NCBI GenBank assembly: GCA_965215005.1
Contig: CBDCCZ010000003.1
Location: 160,001 to 224,000 of the forward strand
DNA: 64,000 bases
Reading direction: 5' to 3'
Source of the DNA: Kofleriaceae bacterium
GTDB lineage: Bacteria > Myxococcota_A > Polyangia > Haliangiales > Haliangiaceae
Shown: one piece after another, positions 5,462 to 60,457 of the stretch
Numbering within the stretch: position 1 is the first letter of the stretch
Layout of the letters: each line of letters begins with the position of its first letter
The notes under the pieces: generated by a model
Told to the model about the DNA's origin: nothing
What the model saw: the letters and a program-made list of their open reading frames with translations, nothing else
Database searches by the model: none
Program-made: the position numbers and the translations under genes

Positions 5462-6456
5462 AGTCATTGCTTGCAATGATCGCTCTTGCCATCGCGGTAG
5501 CCGGCTGCGATGCGCCGGCGCCCACAGCGACCCCCGAGGTTGCCGATGACGCCCTCACGTCAACCGCCGAGCTCGGACCGGTGCGAGCCACACTCGAGCT
5601 GCGGCCGAAGGAGCCGCGCCTGGGCGATGTGCTCACGCTTTCGCTCGTGGTCACAGCCGAGGCCGGGATCGAGGTCACGATGCCCGACTTCGGCGAGGCG
5701 CTGGGCCGCTTTAGCATCGTCTCGTTCGAGCCGCGAGAGCGGCACCAGGCTGGCCAAACCGTGCATGAACAGGTCTATGGGCTGCAACCGCCGATGAGCG
5801 GACCTCAACGCATTCCGCCGCTGCGCGTCGAGTTTGTCGATAAACGCAAACGCGCGGGAAAAAAGCAACTCGAGTCGCGCGAGCTGTTGACCGATGAGCT
5901 GGCCGTCAACGTGGCGTCGGTTCTTCCCGAAGGCGAGGTGACGAGCGAGCTGCGCGCGGCGCGGGACTCACTCGGGCCGCGCAACCAAACTCTGCTGCTT
6001 CGCTTCTGGTGGGCGTTTCTGGCCGCCGGCGTCGTTTTGGGTGGCGCGGTGATGGCGCTACTGCGCTGGCGTTCGAGTCGCGCGCAGATCGCCAAAGTCG
6101 ATGCGTACCAGGCGGCGATGCAGCGACTCGCGGTGCTAGAGGCGCGTGGATTGCCCACCGGCGAGACCGCCGATGCTTGGTACGTCGAGCTCTCGAGCAT
6201 CGTCCGTCGCTATCTCGAAGATCGGTATCGCGTCCGCGCTCCAGAGCTCACCACCGAAGAGTTCCTGCTAGAAGCGCAGCGCTCGCGCGAGCTTACCGGC
6301 GAGCATCGCGCGCTGTTGGCTTCGTTCTTGACGATCTGCGACCGAGTGAAGTTTGCCGGTCACGAGCCCAACGAGTCGGAATCGAGCGAAGCGCTCACCG
6401 CGGCGCGGCGATTTCTCTCCGAAACCCGTGCAACTGCGGCGCAGGAGGCAGCGTGA
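5458..6456 (+). CDS. Bat-operon lipoprotein/membrane protein (DUF4381-like C-terminus)
   Basis: Lipobox AVAG-C, Ig-like region, TM helix, LSSIVRRYLEDRY...TTEEFL...DRVKFA motif typical of this operon position. Confidence 0.75.
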   Translation: MKSLLAMIALAIAVAGCDAPAPTATPEVADDALTSTAELGPVRATLELRPKEPRLGDVLTLSLVVTAEAGIEVTMPDFGEALGRFSIVSFEPRERHQAGQTVHEQVYGLQPPMSGPQRIPPLRVEFVDKRKRAGKKQLESRELLTDELAVNVASVLPEGEVTSELRAARDSLGPRNQTLLLRFWWAFLAAGVVLGGAVMALLRWRSSRAQIAKVDAYQAAMQRLAVLEARGLPTGETADAWYVELSSIVRRYLEDRYRVRAPELTTEEFLLEAQRSRELTGEHRALLASFLTICDRVKFAGHEPNESESSEALTAARRFLSETRATAAQEAA

Positions 6457-7487
6457 TGCAGCTCTTCGGCGTTGGTTTTCGCCACCCGTGGCTGCTGCTC
6501 ACCGCGCTCTTGGCGTTGCCCGTGTTCTATTGGAGCTATCGGGCCTCTGCGCGGGTACTGTTTTCCTCGCTAGCAGCGCTGCCCACCCGCGGCTCGACCT
6601 GGCGCACGGCATTGTCGTGGGTGCCGGCGGCCCTGCTCGCGATCGCGACGCTGGCCTTGGCCGTAGCCCTCGCGGGACCGCGCACTGCGACCGACCTCCG
6701 TCGGATACGCCGCGAAGGCATCGCCATCATGATGGTGGTAGACATCTCGGGCTCGATGCGCGCGCTCGATCTCGCGCGCGATGGCAACAAAGACACCCGG
6801 CTCGATGCCGTGAAGCGAGTATTCGAAGACTTCGTGCTCGGCGGCAACGGACTGCCCGGCCGCCCCAACGATGCCATCGGCATCGTGAGCTTTGCCGGGT
6901 ACGCCGACACCCGCGCGCCGCTTACGCTCGATCACGAGCAGGTCGCCGAGATCGCCAAGCGACTGCGAATCGTCACCGATCGCTCCGAAGACGGCACCGC
7001 ACTCGGCGATGGCCTCGGGTTGGCCGTCGAGCGACTGCACCGCTCCAAGGCGCGCTCGAAGATCGCCATCGTGCTCACCGACGGCGTCAACAACGCCGGC
7101 GAGCTGACGCCGAGCGCGGCGGCTCAGCTGGCCAAGAAGAAAGGCATCAAGGTCTACACCATCGGCGCGGGCACCACTGGGATGGCGCCGATCGAGGTGC
7201 CTGATCCGTTCACCGGTCGCCCAACCATGCAGGCGGTGCCGGTAGAGATCGACGAGGCGACGCTGCAGGAGATCGCCGCTGAAACCAACGGCCAATACTT
7301 CCGCGCAAGCGATGCCGAGGCGTTGGCGCAGGTCTATCGCGAAATCGATTCACTCGAGCGCAGTGAGCTCGGCGAAGAACGAGAAACCGAGTACCACGAG
7401 CTCTACGCGCTGCCGCTGGGGCTCGGGCTGGCGCTGGCGTGCCTTGGCTGGCTCGCCCAGCTCACGGTGTTCAGGAGGCTGCCGTGA
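6456..7487 (+). CDS. batA: BatA-like VWA domain membrane protein
   Basis: N-terminal FxxPxxL TM segment, MIDAS DISGSM, GTALGDGL, LTDG, C-terminal TM then RRLP. Confidence 0.85.
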   Translation: MQLFGVGFRHPWLLLTALLALPVFYWSYRASARVLFSSLAALPTRGSTWRTALSWVPAALLAIATLALAVALAGPRTATDLRRIRREGIAIMMVVDISGSMRALDLARDGNKDTRLDAVKRVFEDFVLGGNGLPGRPNDAIGIVSFAGYADTRAPLTLDHEQVAEIAKRLRIVTDRSEDGTALGDGLGLAVERLHRSKARSKIAIVLTDGVNNAGELTPSAAAQLAKKKGIKVYTIGAGTTGMAPIEVPDPFTGRPTMQAVPVEIDEATLQEIAAETNGQYFRASDAEALAQVYREIDSLERSELGEERETEYHELYALPLGLGLALACLGWLAQLTVFRRLP

Positions 7488-23030: not shown

Positions 23031-25187
23031 ATGGCGAATCGCCTCGGCGTTGTCTCGGTGTTACTGCTCGCTTCCGCCTGTGCGGCCGATCTGGCTCCTG
23101 AGCCGGAAGGCGAGGACGTTGGTGACGTGTATGAGGAGACGGCGGTCGTCGACTGCGAGGTTATCGTGGCTGGCGGCTCCACGGCGGCCCTAGCGGCGGC
23201 GCTGACGGCGGCGCGGGAAGGCGCGCAAACGTGTCTGCTCGAGCCAACGGATTGGGTGGGCGGACAGCTCACGGCGAGCGCGGTACCTGCAATTGACTTC
23301 GCGTGGCACAAGGTCGGCGAGCTCGATGTGAAGCGCGCCGCGCACGATCCGCGCAACATTCCCCGCGAGCTCAATGAGCTCTTGGCCGCCGTCGGCAATC
23401 CCGGCAGCTGTTGGGTGTCGCGCAACTGCTTTCGCCCCGATGCGTTCCATGACAATCGCCTGCAGCCCGCCATCGCGGCGCAGTCGCGGCTACAGGTGTT
23501 TCTCAACACGGTCGTCAAAGATGTGGTTACTCAGCCTGGCGTCGAAGACACGATCATCGAGTCGCTGGTGGCCATCCGTCGCACCGCTCGTCCCGGCGTC
23601 GATGCGTGGGACCGCCGGCTTTCCGCAGAGCTTGGCGACTGGTACTCCCCCACTAGTTCGGCGCGTTTCGTCAAAGAGACGCTGCGGTTTCGCGGCGTCG
23701 GCGGAGCCATTCCGATCGTCATCGATGCGACTGAGCTAGGTGACGTGCTGGTGCTTTCGGGTGCTCCGTATCTGCAAGGCGCGGAGGTGCTCGATGGCAC
23801 CACCGAGCTCGCCGACGACCGCTGTGGCCAGGCCGCCGTAGTGCCGTTCGCGATGAAATATCACACCGGTCCCCGCACCGAGCCGCCGGTTCCGCTGCCC
23901 ACCGAGCACCGAGACTTCTATGGCCTCGGAGCGCACAGCTGGGAGCGCATCTGGAGCTATCGCCGAATCATAAAGGCGCCAGGACAAGCTCTCTATGGCG
24001 ACGTAACGCTGCAGAACTGGAATCCGGGAAACGATTTCCCCTTCGGATATTTGCTACTCGGCGCCGCAGCCACTGAAGCGCAGCGCAGCAACTGGCAAGG
24101 CGGTGTAGATCTCACCGCGCTCGCAGCCTTGGAGCTCCACGCCTATGGCTTCTACAATTGGTTCAAAGCCCGCGCGCCCAACGGCCAGTCGAGCTGGCTC
24201 ACTCTCGATCGGGAGATCCTCGGCAGCTCGACAGGGTTGGCCAAGATGCCCTATCTCCGTGACACGCGGCGCAGCGTAGGGCTCGACGGCTTCGTCCTCG
24301 CCGGCCGGCACTTTCGCGGCACCGCCGCCGACGTCACTGGCACGCGCTTCGCCGACCGCGTTGCGATCGGCTCCTACGTGGTCGACATTCATCCGCTGCA
24401 CACCTGTCGGTTGCCGAGCTGGGCCTTTGGCAGTCCGCTCACGCTGCCGTACTTCATTCCGTTTCGCGCGCTCACCAATGCCGACCTCGAGAACCTCCTC
24501 GTCGCTGGCAAGACGATGGCGCAGTCCTCCCTTGCCAATGCCGCAACCCGGTTGCAGCCCACCGAATGGTCGACTGGCATCGCCGCGGGTGCTGCCGCGG
24601 CGCATATGCGCGCCGCGGGACTCGAGACCACGCGCGAGGCGCTGCAGAACATCGGCGCGATTCAGGCGCGCATTCGCAACCACGCGCCGATCGACTGGAC
24701 CATTGACGGCAACACCTATCCCGCCGCCAACGAGGTGCTACCGCCGGTTGCGCAGACTATTTACTGTCCAGATGGAGCCCGCTTTGACGAAGGCTATGGC
24801 TTTTGCGTCTCGGGTGAGCACGCCTGGGGGCCCTTCACCCATGGGATGATCGAGCGCTGCAACGCCGCCGGCGGCGGCAACGCCTGCTCGCAAACCACCG
24901 TCACCACGATCGCCGGACGCTCCGTTCGACTACGCCGGTGGGCCAAGAGCTTTGCGCGCACCATTCGCGGCGACGGCTCGTGCCCGCTGGGCGCCGAACG
25001 CTCCGCCGAATACCTTGGCCACTGCACGGAACGCTACTTTGACGGCCAAGCCTGGCAGCACGACGTGTTTGGACCTTTCGGTGCTGACCTCGTCGAGGCG
25101 TGCTCACGCGCCGGCGGCGGCAACGCCTGCGTAACACACCGCTGGGGCGCACCGTTCTTCCGCCAGCTCGTCGGCTCGCTGCGCTAA
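23031..25187 (+). CDS. Lipoprotein FAD-dependent oxidoreductase (FAD_oxidored-like) with duplicated C-terminal Cys module
   Basis: Lipobox ASA-C; VIVAGGSTA, WVGGQLT, IDATELGD, PYLRDTRR, IPFRAL, NLLVAGK, RLQPTEW. Confidence 0.85.
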   Translation: MANRLGVVSVLLLASACAADLAPEPEGEDVGDVYEETAVVDCEVIVAGGSTAALAAALTAAREGAQTCLLEPTDWVGGQLTASAVPAIDFAWHKVGELDVKRAAHDPRNIPRELNELLAAVGNPGSCWVSRNCFRPDAFHDNRLQPAIAAQSRLQVFLNTVVKDVVTQPGVEDTIIESLVAIRRTARPGVDAWDRRLSAELGDWYSPTSSARFVKETLRFRGVGGAIPIVIDATELGDVLVLSGAPYLQGAEVLDGTTELADDRCGQAAVVPFAMKYHTGPRTEPPVPLPTEHRDFYGLGAHSWERIWSYRRIIKAPGQALYGDVTLQNWNPGNDFPFGYLLLGAAATEAQRSNWQGGVDLTALAALELHAYGFYNWFKARAPNGQSSWLTLDREILGSSTGLAKMPYLRDTRRSVGLDGFVLAGRHFRGTAADVTGTRFADRVAIGSYVVDIHPLHTCRLPSWAFGSPLTLPYFIPFRALTNADLENLLVAGKTMAQSSLANAATRLQPTEWSTGIAAGAAAAHMRAAGLETTREALQNIGAIQARIRNHAPIDWTIDGNTYPAANEVLPPVAQTIYCPDGARFDEGYGFCVSGEHAWGPFTHGMIERCNAAGGGNACSQTTVTTIAGRSVRLRRWAKSFARTIRGDGSCPLGAERSAEYLGHCTERYFDGQAWQHDVFGPFGADLVEACSRAGGGNACVTHRWGAPFFRQLVGSLR

Positions 25188-25313
25188 GCGGTCTTGAATA
25201 AGGGAGGCGACCGAGGCACCTTCGCGCGTGTCTTCACTTGCGGGGTCTTGCTCTTCGGCGCGATGACGGCCGCGTGCGTTGCCGTTGTCACTCCCATAGC
25301 GCGGAGGCGACCG

Positions 25314-25469
25314 TGGGGCTATGGACATGCCGGGGCGAGGACAAGTCCTATCCGCTCCGCGGTGCCCTATGCACAGCTCGCCTTCGGCCACCTGCGCATA
25401 GGACAATGAACTTGCCCACGCCTCTTGGACAACCCTCCTTCGTCGGGTTGCCCACCTGCCCACAGCCCC
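25314..25469 (-). repeat. Multi-stem palindromic element, candidate structured RNA
   Basis: Nested inverted repeats: ggggctatggaca/tgcccacagcccc, ggacaagt/acttgccc, cctatgcacag/ctgcgcatagg, tggacaaccc/gggttgccca. Confidence 0.6.
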
Positions 25470-25472
25470 GAG

Positions 25473-25625
25473 TAGTACGCCGCCGCGGGATTGATGACGC
25501 AGAAATCCGCCGCCCCGATGCGGGGCAAGGGCGGCAGATTTCTGCTGCTCAGGCGCCCCGTTCGGCGTCTCCCCAAGCGATTGTTGTTTTTCTAGCGGTT
25601 CACGACTTCCGCCGTGAACCACTAG
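25473..25625. mobile_element. 150-bp TAG-bounded palindromic MITE/REPIN-like element, copy 1 (intergenic)
   Basis: Matches 28543-28695 at all but 7 of 153 positions; TAG at both ends, 150 bp apart; two long stems. Confidence 0.85.
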
Positions 25626-25830
25626 CCCTTTAAATGGGAACACAACAAGAACGCGAACCGCATGCGTGACGAGACCAACACTTGGCTCACCGCCGGCGGG
25701 AATGCTTGTTCACCGGCAAGGGGCAATTAAGCCGGATCACCCGAAGGTGCTCCGAGAGGAGTTGCAGTCCATCTGATGCTGGGCGTCGAGCCAGCCGGTC
25801 TACCTCTCGCATCGCTTTGCGGGGGAAGTC

Positions 25831-25911
25831 TCTCGCCTGGCGCAGGCTTGCATCTGGCATTCTGCGTCTGGCGCAGGTCTGCGTCTCGCGCAGGTCCGCC
25901 TCCAGCGCGAG
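25831..25911 (+). repeat. Tandem 17-bp mini-hairpins upstream of the HUH transposase
   Basis: tctgcgtctggcgcagg (25861), tctgcgtctcgcgcagg (25878), degenerate copies at 25831 and 25895. Confidence 0.55.
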
Positions 25912-26057
25912 CACGCGCCGCAGAGCGCAAGTACTCGCCTGGCGCGGCCGGTCCTTCTCGCCAGTGCCGATGCCCGCGCTGGGTCTGCACCTCTGGGCGC
26001 CGGCCGCGCCGGGGGCAAACTGTCAGACGCGCGTGAGAGATTGTCTGCCGATTGAAG

Positions 26058-26717
26058 ATGGTGGGCACGAAGTTCAAAGTGAAGACTCGGAGGAAGCGAC
26101 ACCGGCAGGAAGCGTTCGCGTTTCGCACCTGGGGTGGCAAGCGCGAGGGTGCTGGGCGCAAGCCGACGGGCAAGCGCGCCGGGGTGTCCCACGCGCCGCG
26201 TGCGCGCATTCGCCGCACGACGCCGGTGCACGTCACGCTTCGCATGGCGCCGCATGTCTACAATCTGCGCAGCAGGCGGTCGTTCCGGGTCATTCAGCAG
26301 GCGTTGTTTGCGGCTAGCAATCGCCTAGGCACCAAGATTCTCGAGTTCTCGGTGCAGGGCAACCACGTGCATCTGCTCGCCGAGACGCAGGACGACGCTG
26401 CGCTCTCCCGAGCGATGAAGGGCTTGTCGGTGCGCCTCGCTCGGGGCCTCAACAAGATGATGGGCAAGCGCGGCCGGGTGCTCGGCGACCGCTACCACGC
26501 TCACGTGCTGCGGACGCCCACCGAGGTGGTGCGCGTCCGCGCTTACATCAAGCGCAACTACCGCAAGCACGCCGCCGAGCGCGGGCACAAGCTGCCCGCG
26601 GGCTTCGTAGATCCATATTCGTCGTCGGCGCCCGGAATGCGCCGCAGGCTCGGGCTACCGGCGCCTGGCTGGCTCGCGAGCCACGGCGCCTCCGCCACGG
26701 CAGAAAACACGACGTGA
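26058..26717 (+). CDS. Y1 HUH transposase (IS200-like / REP-associated tyrosine transposase, RAYT)
   Basis: WGGKREGAGRK, PVHVTLR, HUH motif GNHVHLL, DRYH, catalytic Tyr in AYIKRN. Confidence 0.85.
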   Translation: MVGTKFKVKTRRKRHRQEAFAFRTWGGKREGAGRKPTGKRAGVSHAPRARIRRTTPVHVTLRMAPHVYNLRSRRSFRVIQQALFAASNRLGTKILEFSVQGNHVHLLAETQDDAALSRAMKGLSVRLARGLNKMMGKRGRVLGDRYHAHVLRTPTEVVRVRAYIKRNYRKHAAERGHKLPAGFVDPYSSSAPGMRRRLGLPAPGWLASHGASATAENTT

Positions 26718-26748
26718 CAGCTCGTCGCCTCGCTACGCTAACATCGTT

Positions 26749-29610
26749 TCACAGCGGCGCTGCGTCATCGAGCGGTACGTCGACCACCAGCCGGGTGCCT
26801 ATGCCCGGGCTCGAGCCGATGCGCGCGGTACCGCCGAGCTCCTCCGCTGCGAGCTTGATGGCATCCATCCCTACGCCGCGCCCGGAAATGGTCGAGACGC
26901 GCTCAGCCGTCGAAAAGCCGGGCAAGAACAACAGCTCGTCGATTTGGGTGTCAATGAGCTGGGTTGCATGCGCGGGGTCGACCAGGCCTTTATCGATGGC
27001 GCGCCGGCGGACGCGGTCGCGGTCGATGCCGCGGCCATCGTCGCCCACGGTGACGCGCAACCGTTCGTCGTCGACCTCGAGCTGCACGCGCACGATGCCG
27101 CGCTCGGGCTTGCCTTGGCGAACGCGGTCGGCTGGATCTTCGAGGCCGTGATCGATGGCGTTGCGAACCGCATGCAAGAGAATCTCGCCGAGCTTGCGCA
27201 GGCGGCTCTCTTCCACTAGTGGTGATGCTCCCTCGAACCGCAACTCGACCGGCTTACCGAGCTCTTCGCCTAAGTCGGTCGCCAGCGAGCCCAGGCGATC
27301 CGCGAGTCCACGAACGGGAACACACGTGAGCCCCCGGACCGCACGACGCAGGCGTCCATACGCTTCGTGAAGCTCGTCAGATAACGCGCGTCCCGCGCCG
27401 GTCAACGCGTCCAGCGAGGCCATCTCGGTTTGCACCAACGCCGCGCGTTCGGCTGCCGAGTGGCCAACGCCTGCTTGCGCCGCGGGCCGCACGGTGAACG
27501 CGCTGGCATCGCGAAACAGTCGCTCCAAGCGAGCCGAGGCCAGAGAGGTGCCCGCGCTCAAGGTCTGCCGCAGCGTGAGGATGCCGAGCGACTCGGCCTC
27601 GGTGGCCAGCTCTTCGAGCACGTTGACGAGCGGCGGCGGCGCGCTGGCGACGCGATCGATGGCGCGCTCGAGAAACAGTCGGCCATCGGCGCTGCGCACC
27701 TCGACCATGAAGGATTGGTAGAGGCGAAGCTGCTCGTCGAGCTCGGTGAGCCACGCCTCGACCCGGGCGGTGATACTGCGTTGCGGTCGCTCTGCGCGCA
27801 TCGCGTCGTCGAGCAGCTCGTGCAGCTCGCGGGCGTGAGCGCTCAAAGCCGGAAAGCGATAGCGTCGCGCGCATGCGGCGTAGCTATGGGCAAGCTCGTA
27901 GATACGCGCCAGTGCGCTCTTATCGCGCAGCCGCGTGCTCCAGCGCTCATACCCCCGCTGCATCTGCGAGAGCAGCTTACGCGCTTCGTCGTGAAAGCTC
28001 GCTAGGGCATCGACCACGCGCTCTTGCGGCGCGAGCGGAGCAATGGCTCGGGCGGCGTCGAGAAGCTCGAGAAGCTCGACCACCAGATAGTCATCGGGAC
28101 CGGCAACGCACGCCTCGACGTCAAAGACCATCTGCATGGCTGCTTGCGCGGCAACTCTTACGCTCTCGATAGCAAAGCTCTCTGCTGCACTTCGGGCGGC
28201 GTCGATCGCTCTGAGCAGCGCGCACATCACCAGTGGGTCTTCGCGTCGTTCGCACCAGCGATCGTGGCTTCGATCGATCTCGCTGGCGATCACCGCGCAC
28301 TCGGCGACGAAGTGCTCGGGCAAGTCCGAGCGGCCGAGCTCCGCCACTAGCGTGGTGACCCGAGCGAGCTCCTGCTCTAGGAGCGCCAGCGCTTCGGCGC
28401 GCGCCAGCGGATCGTGCAAGCTCTCCACCACCGGCACCGCAGCGCGGTGTAGCGCTCCTAGCGGCCGCACCCCGGCGGCATCGATGGCGCGCAGCAACTC
28501 GCGCCCAACGCGCTCGAGCTGACCAGCGTCGGTCGAGGCGGCTAGTACGCCGCCGCGGGATGGATGACGCAGAAATCCGCCGCCCCGATGCGGGGCAAGG
28601 GCGGCAGATTTCTGCTGCTCACCGCCCCCCTTCGGCGTCTCCCCAAGCGATTGTTGTGTTTCTAGCGGTTCACGACTTCCGCCGTGAACCACTAGGTGGC
28701 GGCAGGCGTCGACGGCTGCGATGACGCGAGCTAGCGAATCACGTCGCTGGGGCGCGTCCACCTCGGCAGAGCGGCTGAACTGCGCCGCCTCGCCGATCAG
28801 GTCGCGCAGACCGCCGATCAAGCTGCGAATGCGCGCGATCTGCTCGGGGGTGAGCGGCTCACGAGCGGCGCGCATCGGCTCGAGCTCATCTTCCGCGCTA
28901 TGCGCTGCTGCTTGCAAAGCATCGAGGTGAACCGCCCGCGCGTTGCCTTTGAGGGTATGAATGGCGCGAAAGATTTTGTGCACGGCGTGGCGCGCGGACG
29001 GGTCGGTTTGCAGGCGATCGGCCGCGGCGCTGCACTCGGTGAGAAGCCCCTGCGCTTCGGCGCGAAAGGTCTCGACGGCCACGGGATCCACGGCGGGTGC
29101 CGTCTGCGCCCGTGGCACCGAGGTCTGCTCGGAGGCGGGCACGGCCTCGGCTAGTCGTGCAAACATGAGCACGCGCACCAGCGCGCCGTCTTCATAAATA
29201 GGAGCATAGTCGAGCGCGAGCTCGGTACCGCCAGCGTCGGCGCGGCGCGGTGCTTCGTCGAGTTGCAGTGACCAGCCTTCGGAATCCGTTCCGGAGACGC
29301 ATGCGAGCCAGAGCGTCCACATGGCGGCAACGTCGGAGTCTTCTGAGACGCCGAGCGCATCGTGGAGCAAACAGCCGCGGCTCTGCTGCGCAGGCACGGC
29401 GGCGAGATTGGAGTGCAGGGTTTCGACCTCACCCGAGGTTGCATCGAACAGCACCACCACCCCGGGAAACTGCGCGAGCATCAGCTGCCCTAGCTCTGGC
29501 GCCGGCTCATGCACCGACTCGGCGATCGGCTCGATGACCTGACTTCCCATGGGCTCGTCGGCGAGCGGGAAGCTGCCGGTGCGGCGCTTCTTGAAGAATC
29601 CGCTAATCAT
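26749..29610 (-). CDS. CheA-like (class III-type) histidine kinase: PAS-like, Hpt, degenerate Hpt repeats, CheA-type HATPase, no CheW domain
   Basis: Hpt IFRAIHTLKG; HAVRNAIDHGLE, DDGRGID, LFLPGFSTAERVSTISGRGVGMD; protein ends right after the ATPase. Confidence 0.88.
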   Translation of the reverse strand: MISGFFKKRRTGSFPLADEPMGSQVIEPIAESVHEPAPELGQLMLAQFPGVVVLFDATSGEVETLHSNLAAVPAQQSRGCLLHDALGVSEDSDVAAMWTLWLACVSGTDSEGWSLQLDEAPRRADAGGTELALDYAPIYEDGALVRVLMFARLAEAVPASEQTSVPRAQTAPAVDPVAVETFRAEAQGLLTECSAAADRLQTDPSARHAVHKIFRAIHTLKGNARAVHLDALQAAAHSAEDELEPMRAAREPLTPEQIARIRSLIGGLRDLIGEAAQFSRSAEVDAPQRRDSLARVIAAVDACRHLVVHGGSREPLETQQSLGETPKGGGEQQKSAALAPHRGGGFLRHPSRGGVLAASTDAGQLERVGRELLRAIDAAGVRPLGALHRAAVPVVESLHDPLARAEALALLEQELARVTTLVAELGRSDLPEHFVAECAVIASEIDRSHDRWCERREDPLVMCALLRAIDAARSAAESFAIESVRVAAQAAMQMVFDVEACVAGPDDYLVVELLELLDAARAIAPLAPQERVVDALASFHDEARKLLSQMQRGYERWSTRLRDKSALARIYELAHSYAACARRYRFPALSAHARELHELLDDAMRAERPQRSITARVEAWLTELDEQLRLYQSFMVEVRSADGRLFLERAIDRVASAPPPLVNVLEELATEAESLGILTLRQTLSAGTSLASARLERLFRDASAFTVRPAAQAGVGHSAAERAALVQTEMASLDALTGAGRALSDELHEAYGRLRRAVRGLTCVPVRGLADRLGSLATDLGEELGKPVELRFEGASPLVEESRLRKLGEILLHAVRNAIDHGLEDPADRVRQGKPERGIVRVQLEVDDERLRVTVGDDGRGIDRDRVRRRAIDKGLVDPAHATQLIDTQIDELLFLPGFSTAERVSTISGRGVGMDAIKLAAEELGGTARIGSSPGIGTRLVVDVPLDDAAPL
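28543..28695. mobile_element. 150-bp palindromic element, copy 2, inserted in frame in the kinase gene
   Basis: CTAG at 28542-28545 and 28692-28695; about 95% identical to 25473-25625; adds 50 codons with no stop. Confidence 0.88.
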
Positions 29611-30089
29611 TCGCCCTCGATGATGCGCACGCCGATGAGAATCTTCAGAACTCCGGCGCTGGTGTCGAGCGAGACTACGAGAACCTGCTCGGTCAAGCTG
29701 CGATCTTCGATCGAGCCACTGTGAATTCGCGGCGGTAAAATCTCTACTTCATAGCCAGCATCGAGGAGCAGTCCCGTTGCATTGCCGGTGATGATGTTGG
29801 CGAGCTCGCTCACCACGTCGTCGCAAACTGCTTGCTCGAGCGCATCCATCGCGTCGATGGCCATCATCTTGGTGGCAAACAGTCGCGCGAGCTCTTCGCT
29901 GAATACCCACGTGATCGGCCCCGCTAGGCGACCCGTCATCTCCACGGTGCACACCAGGCTCGGCGGCGGATCGATCGCTCGGGTGATGCTGAGCCCGGCC
30001 GGCTGCACATCGATGCCGATGAACGTCTTGATGACGTCGACGACTGGATCGACGAAGGCATTGACGACCTGTGCATTGATGTTAGCCAT
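29607..30089 (-). CDS. cheX: CheX family phosphatase
   Basis: INAQVVNAFV start, MTGRLAG, catalytic-type SELANIITGNA (ExxN), ILPP. Confidence 0.85.
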   Translation of the reverse strand: MANINAQVVNAFVDPVVDVIKTFIGIDVQPAGLSITRAIDPPPSLVCTVEMTGRLAGPITWVFSEELARLFATKMMAIDAMDALEQAVCDDVVSELANIITGNATGLLLDAGYEVEILPPRIHSGSIEDRSLTEQVLVVSLDTSAGVLKILIGVRIIEGE

Positions 30090-30100
30090 CGCCCGCGCCC

Positions 30101-31741
30101 TCATCCTCGGGTAACGCGCATAACCTCGCGCGCGGAGGTAATGCCAGCAATGAGCTTCTTGAGCGCCTGGAACCGCATCGGCTTGAAGCCTTCACTTAAC
30201 GCATGCTCGCGGATCGCCTCGGTGGTGGCACCGCGCGAGATGAGCGCGCGCAGCGGCTCCGTCACTTCGAGTAGCTCACGCACCGCGGTCCGGCCCGAGT
30301 AGCCGGTATCGTTGCAGCGAAAGCAGCCACGCCCGCGCTTGAAGCGAATTTCGGGTGGCAGGTTCTGCAGCCCCAGCGCTTCACGCTCCTGCAGCGACGG
30401 CTCGTACTCTTCTACGCAGCCGGTGCAGACCTTGCGCAACAGCCGCTGCGCGATGACGCCTACCATGGATGGCGCGACGAGATACGGCTGCACGCCCATT
30501 TCCGTGAGCCGGGTAATCGCGCCGGGCGCATCGTTGGTGTGCAGCGACGCCAGCACGAGATGGCCCGTGAGCGCCGCTTCTGAAGCGATGACTCCAGTCT
30601 CGTGGTCGCGAATCTCGCCGATGAGAATCACGTCGGGGTCCTGGCGCAGGATCGAGCGCAGCGCCCCCGCGAAGCTCAGGCCGCGTTTGACATTGACCTG
30701 CACCTGATTGATGCCGGGCAGCTGATACTCGATGGGATCTTCGACCGAGACGATGTTGATGTCGGGCGCTCGAACCGTGTTGAGCGCGCCGTAGAGGGTG
30801 GTGCTCTTGCCACTACCGGTCGGCCCCGTGACCAAGAGCAGCCCGTATGGCGCCGTCACCATGGTCTGAAAGATCTCGAGCTGCTTCTTGTCGAATCCGA
30901 GGTCCTCGAGCGGCAAGAGGGCTTTCTTGCTGTCGAGGATGCGCATGCAGACCTTCTCACCCCAATAGGTGGGAAGAACGGAGACGCGCAGATCGATCTC
31001 GCCCTCCGCGCGCCGCATCTTGATACGGCCGTCTTGCGGCACGTAGCGCACCGAGATGTCGAGCTCCGCGAGCACCTTGATGCGCGAAACGATCGCCGGA
31101 TGCAGCTCGGCGGGGCGCGTGTCGACGTGGCGCAATCCACCATCGACGCGATAGCGGGTGACGGTCTCTTTCTCGCTGGCCTCGATGTGAATGTCGCTAG
31201 CGCCCGCTTCAACAGCGCCTGCAATGAGTCGATCGACGATTTGAGTCGCTTCTAAGAGCGCCTCTTGCGTGACGTCGACCTCTTCTTCCACGGCCACGAT
31301 CTTGGTCGCTGGCTCGTCATACAGGCGACGAATCGCGCGATCAATCTCCAGCGGCGAAGCCAAGAGAATCGAGACGCTGCGCTTGAGCTCGGCCCCAATC
31401 CAGTCAAAGACCTCGAGCTGGGTCGGGTCTGCGGTGGCGATGGAGACCTCGCTGCCGTCGAGATAGGTGGGCACCAAGCGATGGCGTTCCGCTAGATGCC
31501 GCGGCAACAGAGTCGCGAGCTCGACGGCAATCTCGACACCATCGAGCTCGAGGCGCGCTACGTTGAAGCGCCGAGCCACCACCTCGAGCAGATCATCGAC
31601 GCTGGCGAAACCTGCAGCCGACAAACTGGCCTCGGAGAGGCGGCGCTGCTTGAGCAGCTCGAGCGCGGCGCGGTCGCGATTGGCTGCTGCGGTCGGTGCT
31701 GGCGTCGAGGCCTTCGCAGTGCCGGAAAACCGCAGGTTCAA
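30101..31741 (-). CDS. GspE/PulE/PilB family secretion or pilus-assembly ATPase
   Basis: T2SSE_N-like domain, ASDIHIE, PQDGR, GPTGSGKS, LRQDPDVILIGEIRD, LHTNDA, CxxC...CxxC. Confidence 0.93.
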   Translation of the reverse strand: MNLRFSGTAKASTPAPTAAANRDRAALELLKQRRLSEASLSAAGFASVDDLLEVVARRFNVARLELDGVEIAVELATLLPRHLAERHRLVPTYLDGSEVSIATADPTQLEVFDWIGAELKRSVSILLASPLEIDRAIRRLYDEPATKIVAVEEEVDVTQEALLEATQIVDRLIAGAVEAGASDIHIEASEKETVTRYRVDGGLRHVDTRPAELHPAIVSRIKVLAELDISVRYVPQDGRIKMRRAEGEIDLRVSVLPTYWGEKVCMRILDSKKALLPLEDLGFDKKQLEIFQTMVTAPYGLLLVTGPTGSGKSTTLYGALNTVRAPDINIVSVEDPIEYQLPGINQVQVNVKRGLSFAGALRSILRQDPDVILIGEIRDHETGVIASEAALTGHLVLASLHTNDAPGAITRLTEMGVQPYLVAPSMVGVIAQRLLRKVCTGCVEEYEPSLQEREALGLQNLPPEIRFKRGRGCFRCNDTGYSGRTAVRELLEVTEPLRALISRGATTEAIREHALSEGFKPMRFQALKKLIAGITSAREVMRVTRG

Positions 31742-55409: not shown

Positions 55410-56169
55410 GTCACTTGCTGATCGAGTCTATTTAATCACCGGCGGTGCGGCGGGAATCGGCCGCGCGTGCGCCCTTCGACTGGCGCGCGAGGGCGCCCGT
55501 GTGGTCATCGCGGATATCGATGCCGAACGCGGCCGAGCCACCGCCGATGAAGCCGCGGCGACTTTCGTCCCGTGCGACGTCGGCGATCGCAGCGCCGTCG
55601 AGGGCGCGGTCAACCTGGCGGTGCAAACCTACGGCCGTATCGATGGTGCCGTGGCCAATGCCGGCATCGTGCACGCGGCGAATTTTCTCGATCTAGAAGA
55701 AGCAGACTTCGACCGCGTGCTGCGGGTGAACCTCAAGGGCGCCTTCCTCACCGGTCAAGCGGTCGCGCGGCGGCTCGTCGGCCAGCGCGGCGGCGGCGCC
55801 ATCGTTAATATGTCGTCGGTCAACGCGGTCATGGCAATCCCGACCATCACGCCATACGTGGTGTCCAAAGGCGGCATCAATCAGCTCACTCGCGTCATGG
55901 CGCTGGCGCTGGCCCCACACGGTATCCGGGTCAATGCCGTCGGCCCCGGCTCCATTCAGACCGACATGCTCGGCGATGTCGCCAGCGACGCTGCCGCGCG
56001 CCAGAAAATCCTCTCGCGCACGCCGCTTGGCCGCGTAGGCGGTCCAGATGAAATCGCTTCGGTCGTCGCGTTTCTGCTCTCCGATGACGCAAGCTACCTC
56101 ACCGGACAGACGCTGTATGCCGACGGCGGCCGCCTCGCACTCAACTACACGGTTCCCGTAGAGTCGTAG
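55408..56169 (+). CDS. SDR family NAD(P)-dependent oxidoreductase
   Basis: TGGAAGIG, NAG, NMSS, YVVSK, IRVNAVGPG. Confidence 0.93.
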   Translation: MSLADRVYLITGGAAGIGRACALRLAREGARVVIADIDAERGRATADEAAATFVPCDVGDRSAVEGAVNLAVQTYGRIDGAVANAGIVHAANFLDLEEADFDRVLRVNLKGAFLTGQAVARRLVGQRGGGAIVNMSSVNAVMAIPTITPYVVSKGGINQLTRVMALALAPHGIRVNAVGPGSIQTDMLGDVASDAAARQKILSRTPLGRVGGPDEIASVVAFLLSDDASYLTGQTLYADGGRLALNYTVPVES

Positions 56170-56371
56170 CTCTGGCTGCGGGTGCGAGAATGTGCCTCAG
56201 CGCACGTCGCGGCGCTCGAAGCGCCGTGGGCAGGGAGGTGCGACTGCGCTCACCTTTGGTTACTGGGGTGTGACAGTGCGGCGTCAAGTTCGCGTTCGGG
56301 CGTCTCCTGACAGAGGCTGTCGCTGAATTACCCGTTGCTCATTGACACACTTTATCCCCATGGTCGTCCCC

Positions 56372-60457
<4,086 letters not shown>

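Follow-up and report, generated by a model that had tools for sequence, protein, structure and literature searches.

Rickettsia palindromic elements (RPEs) are described in the relevant part of PMC10969869 as palindromic repeats of about 150 bp that lie in frame within genes, with nearly half of the copies intragenic. The parts of PMC3733652 that treat tagged palindromes give RPEs a CGTC tag, and they also describe the GTAG repetitive extragenic palindromes (REPs), from whose ends flanking open reading frames (ORFs) often take their TAG stop codon. According to the same parts of that article, GTAG REPs lie inside ORFs in several species, with clusters that encode 43–82 amino acids (aa), and head-to-tail REP dimers are absent or rare in most genomes (PMC3733652). 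Here we consider a 150-bp palindromic element that sits in frame inside the gene for a CheA-like histidine kinase. The gene lies in a 64,000-nucleotide window, the whole stretch of DNA analysed (positions 160,001 to 224,000 of contig CBDCCZ010000003.1 of a Kofleriaceae bacterium). We think it very probable that this element belongs, as a single copy, to a mobile but non-autonomous family of repeats in this genome.

The intragenic copy (28543–28695, plus strand, from TAG to TAG; nhmmer 158.0 bits, model positions 1–149) and an intergenic copy, which we call copy A (25473–25625, plus strand; nhmmer 167.7 bits; about 430 bp upstream of a Y1 transposase ORF), form an ungapped alignment with 146 of 153 positions identical (95.4%, blastn E 1.7e-65). 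The original prediction for this DNA had paired the same two stretches with seven differences, and its reading of their bounds is also correct: TAG recurs 150 bp apart in both copies (CTAG at 28542–28545 and 28692–28695; TAG at 25473–25475 and 25623–25625). On the gene strand, each CTAG junction of the kinase copy is read CTA|G, so that the left junction provides the Leu after the insert and the right junction the Leu before it. The minus-strand ORF at 26749–29610 remains open through the copy and encodes 953 aa (...CRH L VVHGGSREPLETQQSLGETPKGGGEQQKSAALAPHRGGGFLRHPSRGGV L AAST...). Residues 307–356 come from the element and lie 37 residues past the Pfam Hpt match, in agreement with the predicted in-frame gain of 50 aa after the Hpt domain.

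Each unit consists of a long imperfect hairpin of about 92 nt on the left, a T-rich spacer, and a 34-nt hairpin on the right that ends in CTAG. In the kinase copy, the left module spans 28550–28641 (approximate ends, transferred from the copy A fold) and has as its core a 17-nt stem with arms at 28569–28585 and 28599–28615 that are 94% complementary. The right module spans 28662–28695, with CTAGCGGTTCACG and CGTGAACCACTAG on the two sides of its loop, and also occurs solo (matches to positions 105–153); the right-hand 47 nt of the element are likewise found alone. Both the 17-bp and the 13-bp stems of the original prediction were recovered by stem listing and by folding, and the 13-nt stem (28662–28695) is present in the fold of copy A as DNA as well as in that of the kinase copy as RNA. 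The plus strand of copy A folds as DNA at −40.7 kcal/mol (z −4.5) and the minus-strand RNA of the kinase copy at −93.8 kcal/mol (z −8.7), and in each case none of 200 shuffles was as stable. The C-A mismatch noted in each stem is real, but these mismatches belong to the family consensus and not to the kinase copy alone. The suggestion that such mismatches favour the minus strand is true of the two consensus mismatches; family-wide it is not, with 143 G-T cells and 81 C-A cells.

A census by two nhmmer rounds over the genome (6.21 Mb in 62 contigs, 65% G+C, 92.8% completeness) at E ≤ 1e-3 returned not two copies but 158 matches. Eighty-one of these cover at least 135 of the 149 model positions, and 60 are full-length copies that extend from model position 4 or lower to 146 or higher. 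The kinase copy appears young, being 95–96% identical to other copies, and at 158 bits it ranks 15th among the 60. By the calls of our simple codon-usage gene caller (4966 genes, 88.8% coding), 91 of the 158 copies are intergenic. Units also occur in head-to-tail arrays in which neighbours share one TAG (C38:43188–43718, together with pairs on contigs C23, C46, C9 and C4). The array on C38 holds about 3.5 units of a sub-family with the right end GCAAACCGCT and extends from the TAG stop codon of one gene up to a convergent gene.

Covariation among the copies provides evidence that the hairpins matter. Pairs were scored on the fold of the consensus, as RNAalifold with DNA parameters gave no usable consensus structure. 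Twelve of the 46 predicted pairs have double-sided changes, amounting to 50 such cells as compared with 21–34 in shifted controls, and 85% of cells are Watson-Crick. Compensatory changes are found at pairs 27–69, 29–67 and 30–66, and pair 127–142 has CG in 41 copies, with TA taking its place in 15. This excess of double-sided changes over the shifted controls indicates that the hairpins are under selection. In Rfam the only match was to a miRNA hairpin and fell below threshold, at 33 bits for a gathering score of 100; no self-splicing family was matched. A scan for promoters and terminators gave 0 promoter-like sites and 4 terminator-like sites, where 2.5 were expected, and all four lie away from the copies.

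The ends of the element are well defined. Across the 60 full-length copies the left junction has the consensus YTA|G (C in 35 and T in 15 at position −3, T in 39 at −2, A in 47 at −1), with G or A as the base before TAG in 5 copies each, and the right end reads ...CCACT|AG (A in 46, G in 49). No terminal inverted repeat was found beyond the CTAGT that both ends share. In 17 of the 92 matches having a left end, the left TAG is the stop codon of an upstream co-directional gene, and in 15 of the 105 having a right end, a convergent gene has its stop in the right CTA. The element thus ends exactly on the TAG stop codon of a flanking gene in 32 cases in total. Such a junction is able to serve the gene on either side because CTAG is its own reverse complement.

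Site occupancy can be counted in the same way. CTAG is three-fold under-represented in this genome (6730 sites, where base composition predicts about 20,086), and TAG is the stop codon of 1418 of the 4966 called genes. Outside the copies there are 6552 CTAG sites: 1406 intergenic, 409 at stop codons, 3738 in coding sequence read as CTA|G, 993 in coding sequence read as xCT|AGx, and 6 straddling a gene edge. Stop-codon CTAGs are occupied in 32 of 441 cases (about 7%), and coding CTA|G sites in well under 1% (no more than 15 of about 3750). This pattern fits insertion at CTAG followed by purifying selection against harmful copies. It also offers a simple neutral-site model, in which stop-codon and intergenic CTAGs, about 7% occupied, are set against the coding CTA|G sites. 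Of the six frames of the consensus two are open, precisely those in which the junction becomes CTA|G, with one in each orientation. In the xCT|AGx phase stops occur whichever way the element points, and the third phase is impossible for a coding CTAG.

We propose that new copies would arise at a palindromic (C)TAG target, giving CTAG, 146 nt and a second CTAG, with a net gain of 150 bp. Copies would be expected to persist where this gain is harmless: between genes, or precisely at a TAG stop codon, which would be restored by the junction on either side. It is also possible for a copy to persist, rarely, inside a gene in which CTAG is read CTA|G, the phase in which the element is open in both orientations. 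The roughly 50 residues gained there would be hydrophilic and rich in Gly, Pro, Ser and Arg. In the kinase, the copy sits in the variable linker after the Hpt domain, and it is most likely that the insert is translated and tolerated as a hydrophilic loop in that linker.

Assignment of the host gene (26749–29610, minus strand; 953 aa with the insert) draws on Pfam, NCBIfam and orthologue-like genes. Pfam places an Hpt domain at residues 179–269 and HATPase_c at 806–948, and the NCBIfam CheA models match residues 745–948 only; the combination of these two domains with a partial CheA match identifies the product as a CheA-like Hpt kinase. We compared 31 related genomes, namely this genome (G000) and 30 relatives, which include no genome of the same genus. 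The best orthologue-like genes, L023 and L013, are 35–39% identical to the kinase and have its N-terminal region and Hpt domain in common; L013 shares the ATPase domain as well. Opposite the 50-aa insert, L013 has about 10 residues and L023 about 25, so that neither holds the full 50. The spacing between the RRD and VR.L landmarks is, by our count, 58 residues in L023, compared with 96 in the kinase with its insert and 46 without it. Most or all of the insert is therefore absent from both relatives, as had been anticipated, but the gap is approximate instead of clean; it is not residue-exact because the linker is variable. A word-index search for close relatives with kinase residues 150–520 gave only the peptide-sharing proteins of this same genome.

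It is also conceivable that the insertion inactivated the kinase and that the gene, though still open in appearance, is a young pseudogene, but we judge this to be decidedly unlikely. The high identity of the copy to other family members would allow that it is too recent for selection to have acted, and 50 aa have been added 37 residues past the Hpt domain. On the other hand, the 953-aa frame is open, with a coding pattern of G+C at the three codon positions (GC1/GC2/GC3) on both sides of the insert, and the insertion site falls in a linker whose length varies among orthologue-like proteins. At least five other genes carry in-frame copies inside conserved domains, one of them much diverged, which points to tolerance.

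Directly upstream of the kinase, on the same strand, lie a CheX-like gene (29607–30104) and a gene for a PilB/T2SSE-type ATPase (30101–31741). A CheX-like gene is also found upstream of the orthologue-like kinase L023 in the relative G026.

Other genes of this genome carry the element in the same manner. In-gene candidates were taken from copies traversed by long ORFs whose GC pattern is that of coding sequence on either side of the element, and five further inside-gene calls in short, low-scoring ORFs were left out of the count. Six copies lie in frame inside real genes, placed by Pfam, a solved homologue, a paralogue or distant orthologues. Besides the CheA-like kinase, the hosts are a GNAT (C4:128622–129194; Acetyltransf_1 around the insert), a HAD hydrolase (C12:171557–172387; the Pfam HAD match stops shortly before the insert, with a GDS..D motif after it), a phosphomannomutase (C6:35235–37100; PGM_PMM_III is split, by a copy in the opposite orientation), a Ser/Thr kinase-AAA protein (C14:124872–127484; AAA_16 spans the insert) and a TonB-dependent receptor (C28:1934–4423; the insert lies between a signal-peptide-like start and the plug). 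Together with the size of the family, these six copies uphold the original prediction of a mobile palindromic element that sits in ORFs without breaking them, and their occurrence in unrelated genes supports its likening of the element to those of Rickettsia.

The clearest empty site comes from the Ser/Thr kinase-AAA protein. Its tandem paralogue (C14:128968–131445, 66–72% identical) matches residues 2–454 and 505–866 with contiguous subject coordinates, giving a clean 50-aa empty site: GNE|LSAP in the paralogue as compared with GNE[50 aa]LAAS in the filled gene. The clean gap that the original prediction expected in orthologues of the CheA-like kinase is thus found in another gene. Both CTAGs that flank this insert have mutated, to CGAG and CTGG, and the frame is still open. 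In the phosphomannomutase, the solved homologue 9du5_A aligns to query residues 49–344 and 397–488 through its own residues 5–275 and 279–362, leaving an insert of about 49 aa at the site of a much diverged copy (44 bits, as compared with about 150–168 for young copies). The remaining hosts gave less exact comparisons. For the GNAT, no orthologue was found among the 30 relatives and a solved-structure match covers only the part after the insert; for the HAD hydrolase, the alignment to a solved homologue stops at residue 162, just before the insert; and the orthologues of the TonB receptor align only from residue 101–124 on, with the insert in the unaligned N-terminal stretch. An unnamed 442-aa protein on C42 also contains an in-frame copy and is less well supported, having no Pfam family and no orthologue in the 30 relatives. 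Short, diverged pieces of the element are present in a STAND/TPR protein, a DnaJ-domain protein and a hybrid histidine kinase. In a LytS-type histidine kinase (P0007, C3:233232–234434; Pfam His_kinase), the last 50 or so residues are element-encoded in the same frame as in the CheA-like kinase, and in the predicted protein the repeat supplies a new C-terminal tail.

These older copies bear on a further alternative, raised in the original prediction, by which some cells would cut the element out of their DNA, or the mRNA or protein would lose it, so that the working kinase does not contain the 50 aa. The great stability of the gene-strand transcript across the insert and the exact CTAG...CTAG bounds, which would permit precise excision, are what such a process might look like. 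We nevertheless hold it to be very unlikely, since diverged older in-frame copies such as that of the phosphomannomutase are still open, the Ser/Thr kinase keeps its frame with both flanking CTAGs mutated, and Rfam gives no self-splicing family. No contig joins 28542 to 28696 either, a weak argument in that contigs drop rare variants. Among the public sequencing runs listed as containing this stretch, none is of RNA and one is of unspecified kind.

That the copy at 28543–28695 is an assembly artefact, a repeat-induced misjoin within an uninterrupted kinase gene, seems barely credible. The assembly does comprise 62 contigs at 92.8% completeness with many near-identical copies, and short-read contigs break inside the repeat. 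Yet two contigs of one public run (X1), covering 28200–28592 and 28666–29050 at depths of 5.5 and 5.9, enter the copy from the unique flanks and cross its junctions without a difference, although this run may be the window's own source sample and so is not fully independent. With both junctions bridged, the misassembly that the original prediction had allowed for was not seen at the kinase copy. Moreover, the flanks share one frame and one protein that is collinear with its orthologue-like relatives, whereas a chance join would keep the frame one-third of the time and would not unite two halves of one gene. The reverse direction, with the 50 aa as a long-standing segment of the kinase and the scattered copies as pieces of its gene, is almost certainly wrong, for beyond the shared sequence nothing speaks for it, and 158 copies, 91 of them intergenic, all end at (C)TAG, orthologue-like kinases lack most or all of the segment, and unrelated proteins carry it in two different frames.

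The family has a narrow distribution. Element DNA occurs in 2 of the 31 genomes, counting this one, and in the single relative concerned, G016, only the right hairpin and the spacer match. In G016 (loci L002, L004, L006, L008 and L010) there is a sister family of 15 matches, with units of about 149–152 nt and tandem pairs; its right hairpin and spacer are those of this genome, its left long hairpin is different, and several copies lie at contig ends. Among 185,579 species genomes, the exact 24-mer of the right hairpin was found in a single record set, whose title is 'MAG: Nannocystineae bacterium', which makes the myxobacterial label of the original prediction plausible. A phmmer search with the 50-aa peptide against 1.84 billion representatives returned six proteins, five from this genome and one unrelated repeat protein. 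The shared peptide gives false similarity between unrelated proteins and intergenic DNA, with E values down to 1e-25.

Two resident enzymes can be considered as the mover. An IS200-like Y1 transposase acting on the conserved right hairpin is our tentative first candidate. The window encodes one such Y1 (HUH) transposase (26052–26717, plus strand; PF01797, E 2.7e-7), a candidate mobiliser with a weak link to the element. It scores 31.2 bits with Pfam Y1_Tnp (cut-off 23) and 33.9 bits with the NCBIfam model NF047646 REP_Tyr_transpos (cut-off 80). It is one of five paralogues that are 81–91% identical in protein, the others being at C25:2932–3591, C17:91302–91964, C4:217204–217863 and C46:5219–5875. 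The protein is about 221 aa long with a K/R-rich N-terminal extension, and a conserved motif (TGTCAGACGCGCGTGAGAGATTGTCTGC-like) precedes the start codon. Points in favour of such an enzyme are the hairpins of the element, its lack of inverted ends, the head-to-tail arrays, the identity of the right end with the target, and the conservation between genera of the right hairpin alone. The Y1 gene is multi-copy in 18 of the 31 genomes, with 34 matches in each of two, and most of these genomes are without the element. In G016, none of the five listed Y1 genes is on the same contig as the 11 element matches.

The surroundings of the window's Y1 gene have features of their own. A 24-nt direct repeat (25164–25187 and 26718–26741, 22 of 24 nt identical), the first of which forms the 3' end and stop codon of an FAD-oxidoreductase-like gene, brackets a 1530-bp block made up of copy A and the Y1 gene, as though it had come in as a whole between two convergent genes. 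Around the other four Y1 genes no comparable direct repeats were found. About 680 bp upstream of the window's Y1 gene, together with the 5' part of that gene, are repeated without copy A at C46:~6079–6879 (window 25223–26229). This repeat sits downstream of the Y1 gene of C46, and its empty site reads CCCCG|GCTGG|CCCTTT.

It is also possible, if doubtful, that a resident IS630-type transposase using the same CTAG/TA target moves the element. The insertion sequence (IS) IS630 itself targets CTAG and duplicates TA. This genome has three copies of an IS of the IS630 type, each about 1525 bp long, about 99% identical, encoding a 400-aa DDE_3 transposase and bounded by CTA|G...C|TAG (C14:~184018–185542; C6:~55891–57414, with a partial tandem copy to ~58311; C21:~67490–69013; ends GTACCCGGCCACAG). 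The DDE_3 matches in the genome are these three, at 113.6 bits each, and one partial match. On C6 and C21 the IS sits in the terminal CTAG of an element copy, and the C6 copy has stops in its transposase frame. The probability that these two candidates leave over falls to some other enzyme. A search for an autonomous parent found no left-end/right-end pair that encloses a transposase, the one pair detected being 10.9 kb apart. Transposases of the IS4/IS5 type had no match in the genome (PF01609, PF13586).

A number of observations weigh against the proposal as a whole. With regard to the mobilising enzyme, one of the five Y1 genes has an element copy within 0.5 kb, on one side only, and the others have none within 2.5 kb. 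No element hairpin is present in the conserved flanks of the five Y1 genes, which hold other motifs. The orientation of copies relative to the local sign of the GC skew shows no clear bias, with 62 in line with it and 85 against (p ~0.07–0.08, over 62 contigs). For the IS630-type enzyme, the left 15 nt of the element match the IS end at 11 of 15 positions by our count and the right end bears no resemblance to it. Furthermore, no DDE_3 match was found in the 500-contig assembly of G016, which has the same right hairpin. With regard to the target, the paralogous stretch that lacks copy A has GCTGG at the empty site and not CTAG, and the flanks do not co-vary; duplication of the target is therefore indistinguishable from its regeneration by the element's own end. 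The gene contexts throughout come from rough gene calls. For the kinase itself, the nearest orthologues are distant enough and the linker variable enough to leave the gap approximate, and the same lack of an X1 contig from 28542 to 28696 means that no empty kinase allele was recovered from contigs that drop rare variants.

The coding compatibility of the element has to be read with similar care. Of 5000 dinucleotide-preserving shuffles, 13.9% leave both CTA|G-phase frames open, and the gain is exactly 150 bp in 29 of the 60 full copies and a multiple of three in 34, for a divisibility whose prior is one in three. The original prediction of a codon-multiple, stop-free element is right in that the frames are open, but their openness does not exceed chance in shuffles and the 150-bp length holds in 29 of 60 copies only. 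Because 14% of shuffles keep both frames open, adaptation to coding sequence is not demonstrated, and coding compatibility is probably not demonstrably designed.

A bolder proposal would make this the founding case of a third class of tagged palindromes, with CTAG beside GTAG and CGTC, moved by a Y1 transposase through the 34-nt hairpin and shaped for coding sequence. We regard this as unlikely. If it were true, the family could spread through the genes and stop codons of a gene-dense genome, seeding new protein loops as it went. The exact 150-bp gain, the open CTA|G frames encoding flexible hydrophilic loops and the regenerated TAG stops would then be features fitted to coding life. In-frame colonisation by palindromes has its best-known examples in Rickettsia, REP cases being scattered elsewhere, and the present host is a free-living, gene-dense genome of myxobacterial type. 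Importantly, the case can be counted, as it offers defined CTAG junctions, a paralogous empty site and differently aged copies inside conserved enzymes. The 50-aa loops inserted into a CheA-like kinase, a GNAT, a HAD hydrolase, a phosphomannomutase and a STAND-type kinase are natural material on tolerance or new function. The family also matters for annotation: many TAG stops sit in element junctions, and the repeat peptide can mislead annotation by homology.

How, then, does the element compare with systems already described? Our literature searches found no paper on such elements in myxobacteria, and six myxobacterial names are absent from the main text of PMC3733652. Work by Delihas from 2007 and 2008, going by its citation in PMC10969869 and the abstract of PMC2229807, is said to describe ERIC, YPAL and similar small non-autonomous repeats of enterobacteria that have open frames and sometimes lie inside genes. 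Compared by description, those repeats differ in being defined by terminal inverted repeats and in having other hosts. With MITEs (miniature transposable elements with inverted repeats) of the IS630/Tc1-mariner kind, the element shares a TA within a CTAG target and a source of transposase in the same genome. Unlike an IS630-derived MITE, however, it has no terminal inverted repeats and resembles the IS end at its left end only, and the family of G016 keeps the right hairpin with another left end in a genome that gave no DDE_3 match. Non-autonomous elements of the IS200/IS605 type are closer in layout, with subterminal hairpins, no inverted repeats and a fixed tetranucleotide that is repeated at the right end. 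The arrays sharing one TAG fit this type because the right end repeats the target tetranucleotide. A derivative of that type would be expected to resemble its source, whereas this element has no end or hairpin in common with the resident Y1 element.

The resemblance to GTAG REPs, as the relevant parts of PMC3733652 describe them, lies in a short imperfect palindrome, a terminal tetranucleotide containing TAG, ends that supply TAG stops, and some copies in ORFs. As in a REPtron, an IS200-like Y1 transposase gene adjoins one copy. Here, though, the tag is CTAG (right end ACTAG), a second, unrelated long hairpin makes the unit a 150-bp composite, and head-to-tail arrays occur. Compared with a REP unit of 20–40 bp, the 34-nt right hairpin does occur alone, yet the usual unit is the 150-bp composite. 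Unlike the transposase of a REPtron, the Y1 gene, one of five paralogues in this genome, falls below the cut-off of the model for REP-associated tyrosine transposases (RAYTs) and is not flanked by repeats of the element. With RPEs, as they are characterised in the parts of PMC10969869 and PMC3733652 that concern them, the differences are of host, tag and habit. The host is a lineage with a large genome, free-living and titled Nannocystineae, and not a Rickettsia; the ends are (C)TAG in 46–49 of 60 copies instead of the CGTC tag, a comparison of descriptions and not of sequences; and at most 15 of 158 copies are intragenic, compared with nearly half of RPEs. What the element has in common with RPEs is a length of about 150 bp, a palindromic structure, many copies, in-frame positions in unrelated genes, and an added peptide that the host protein appears to tolerate.

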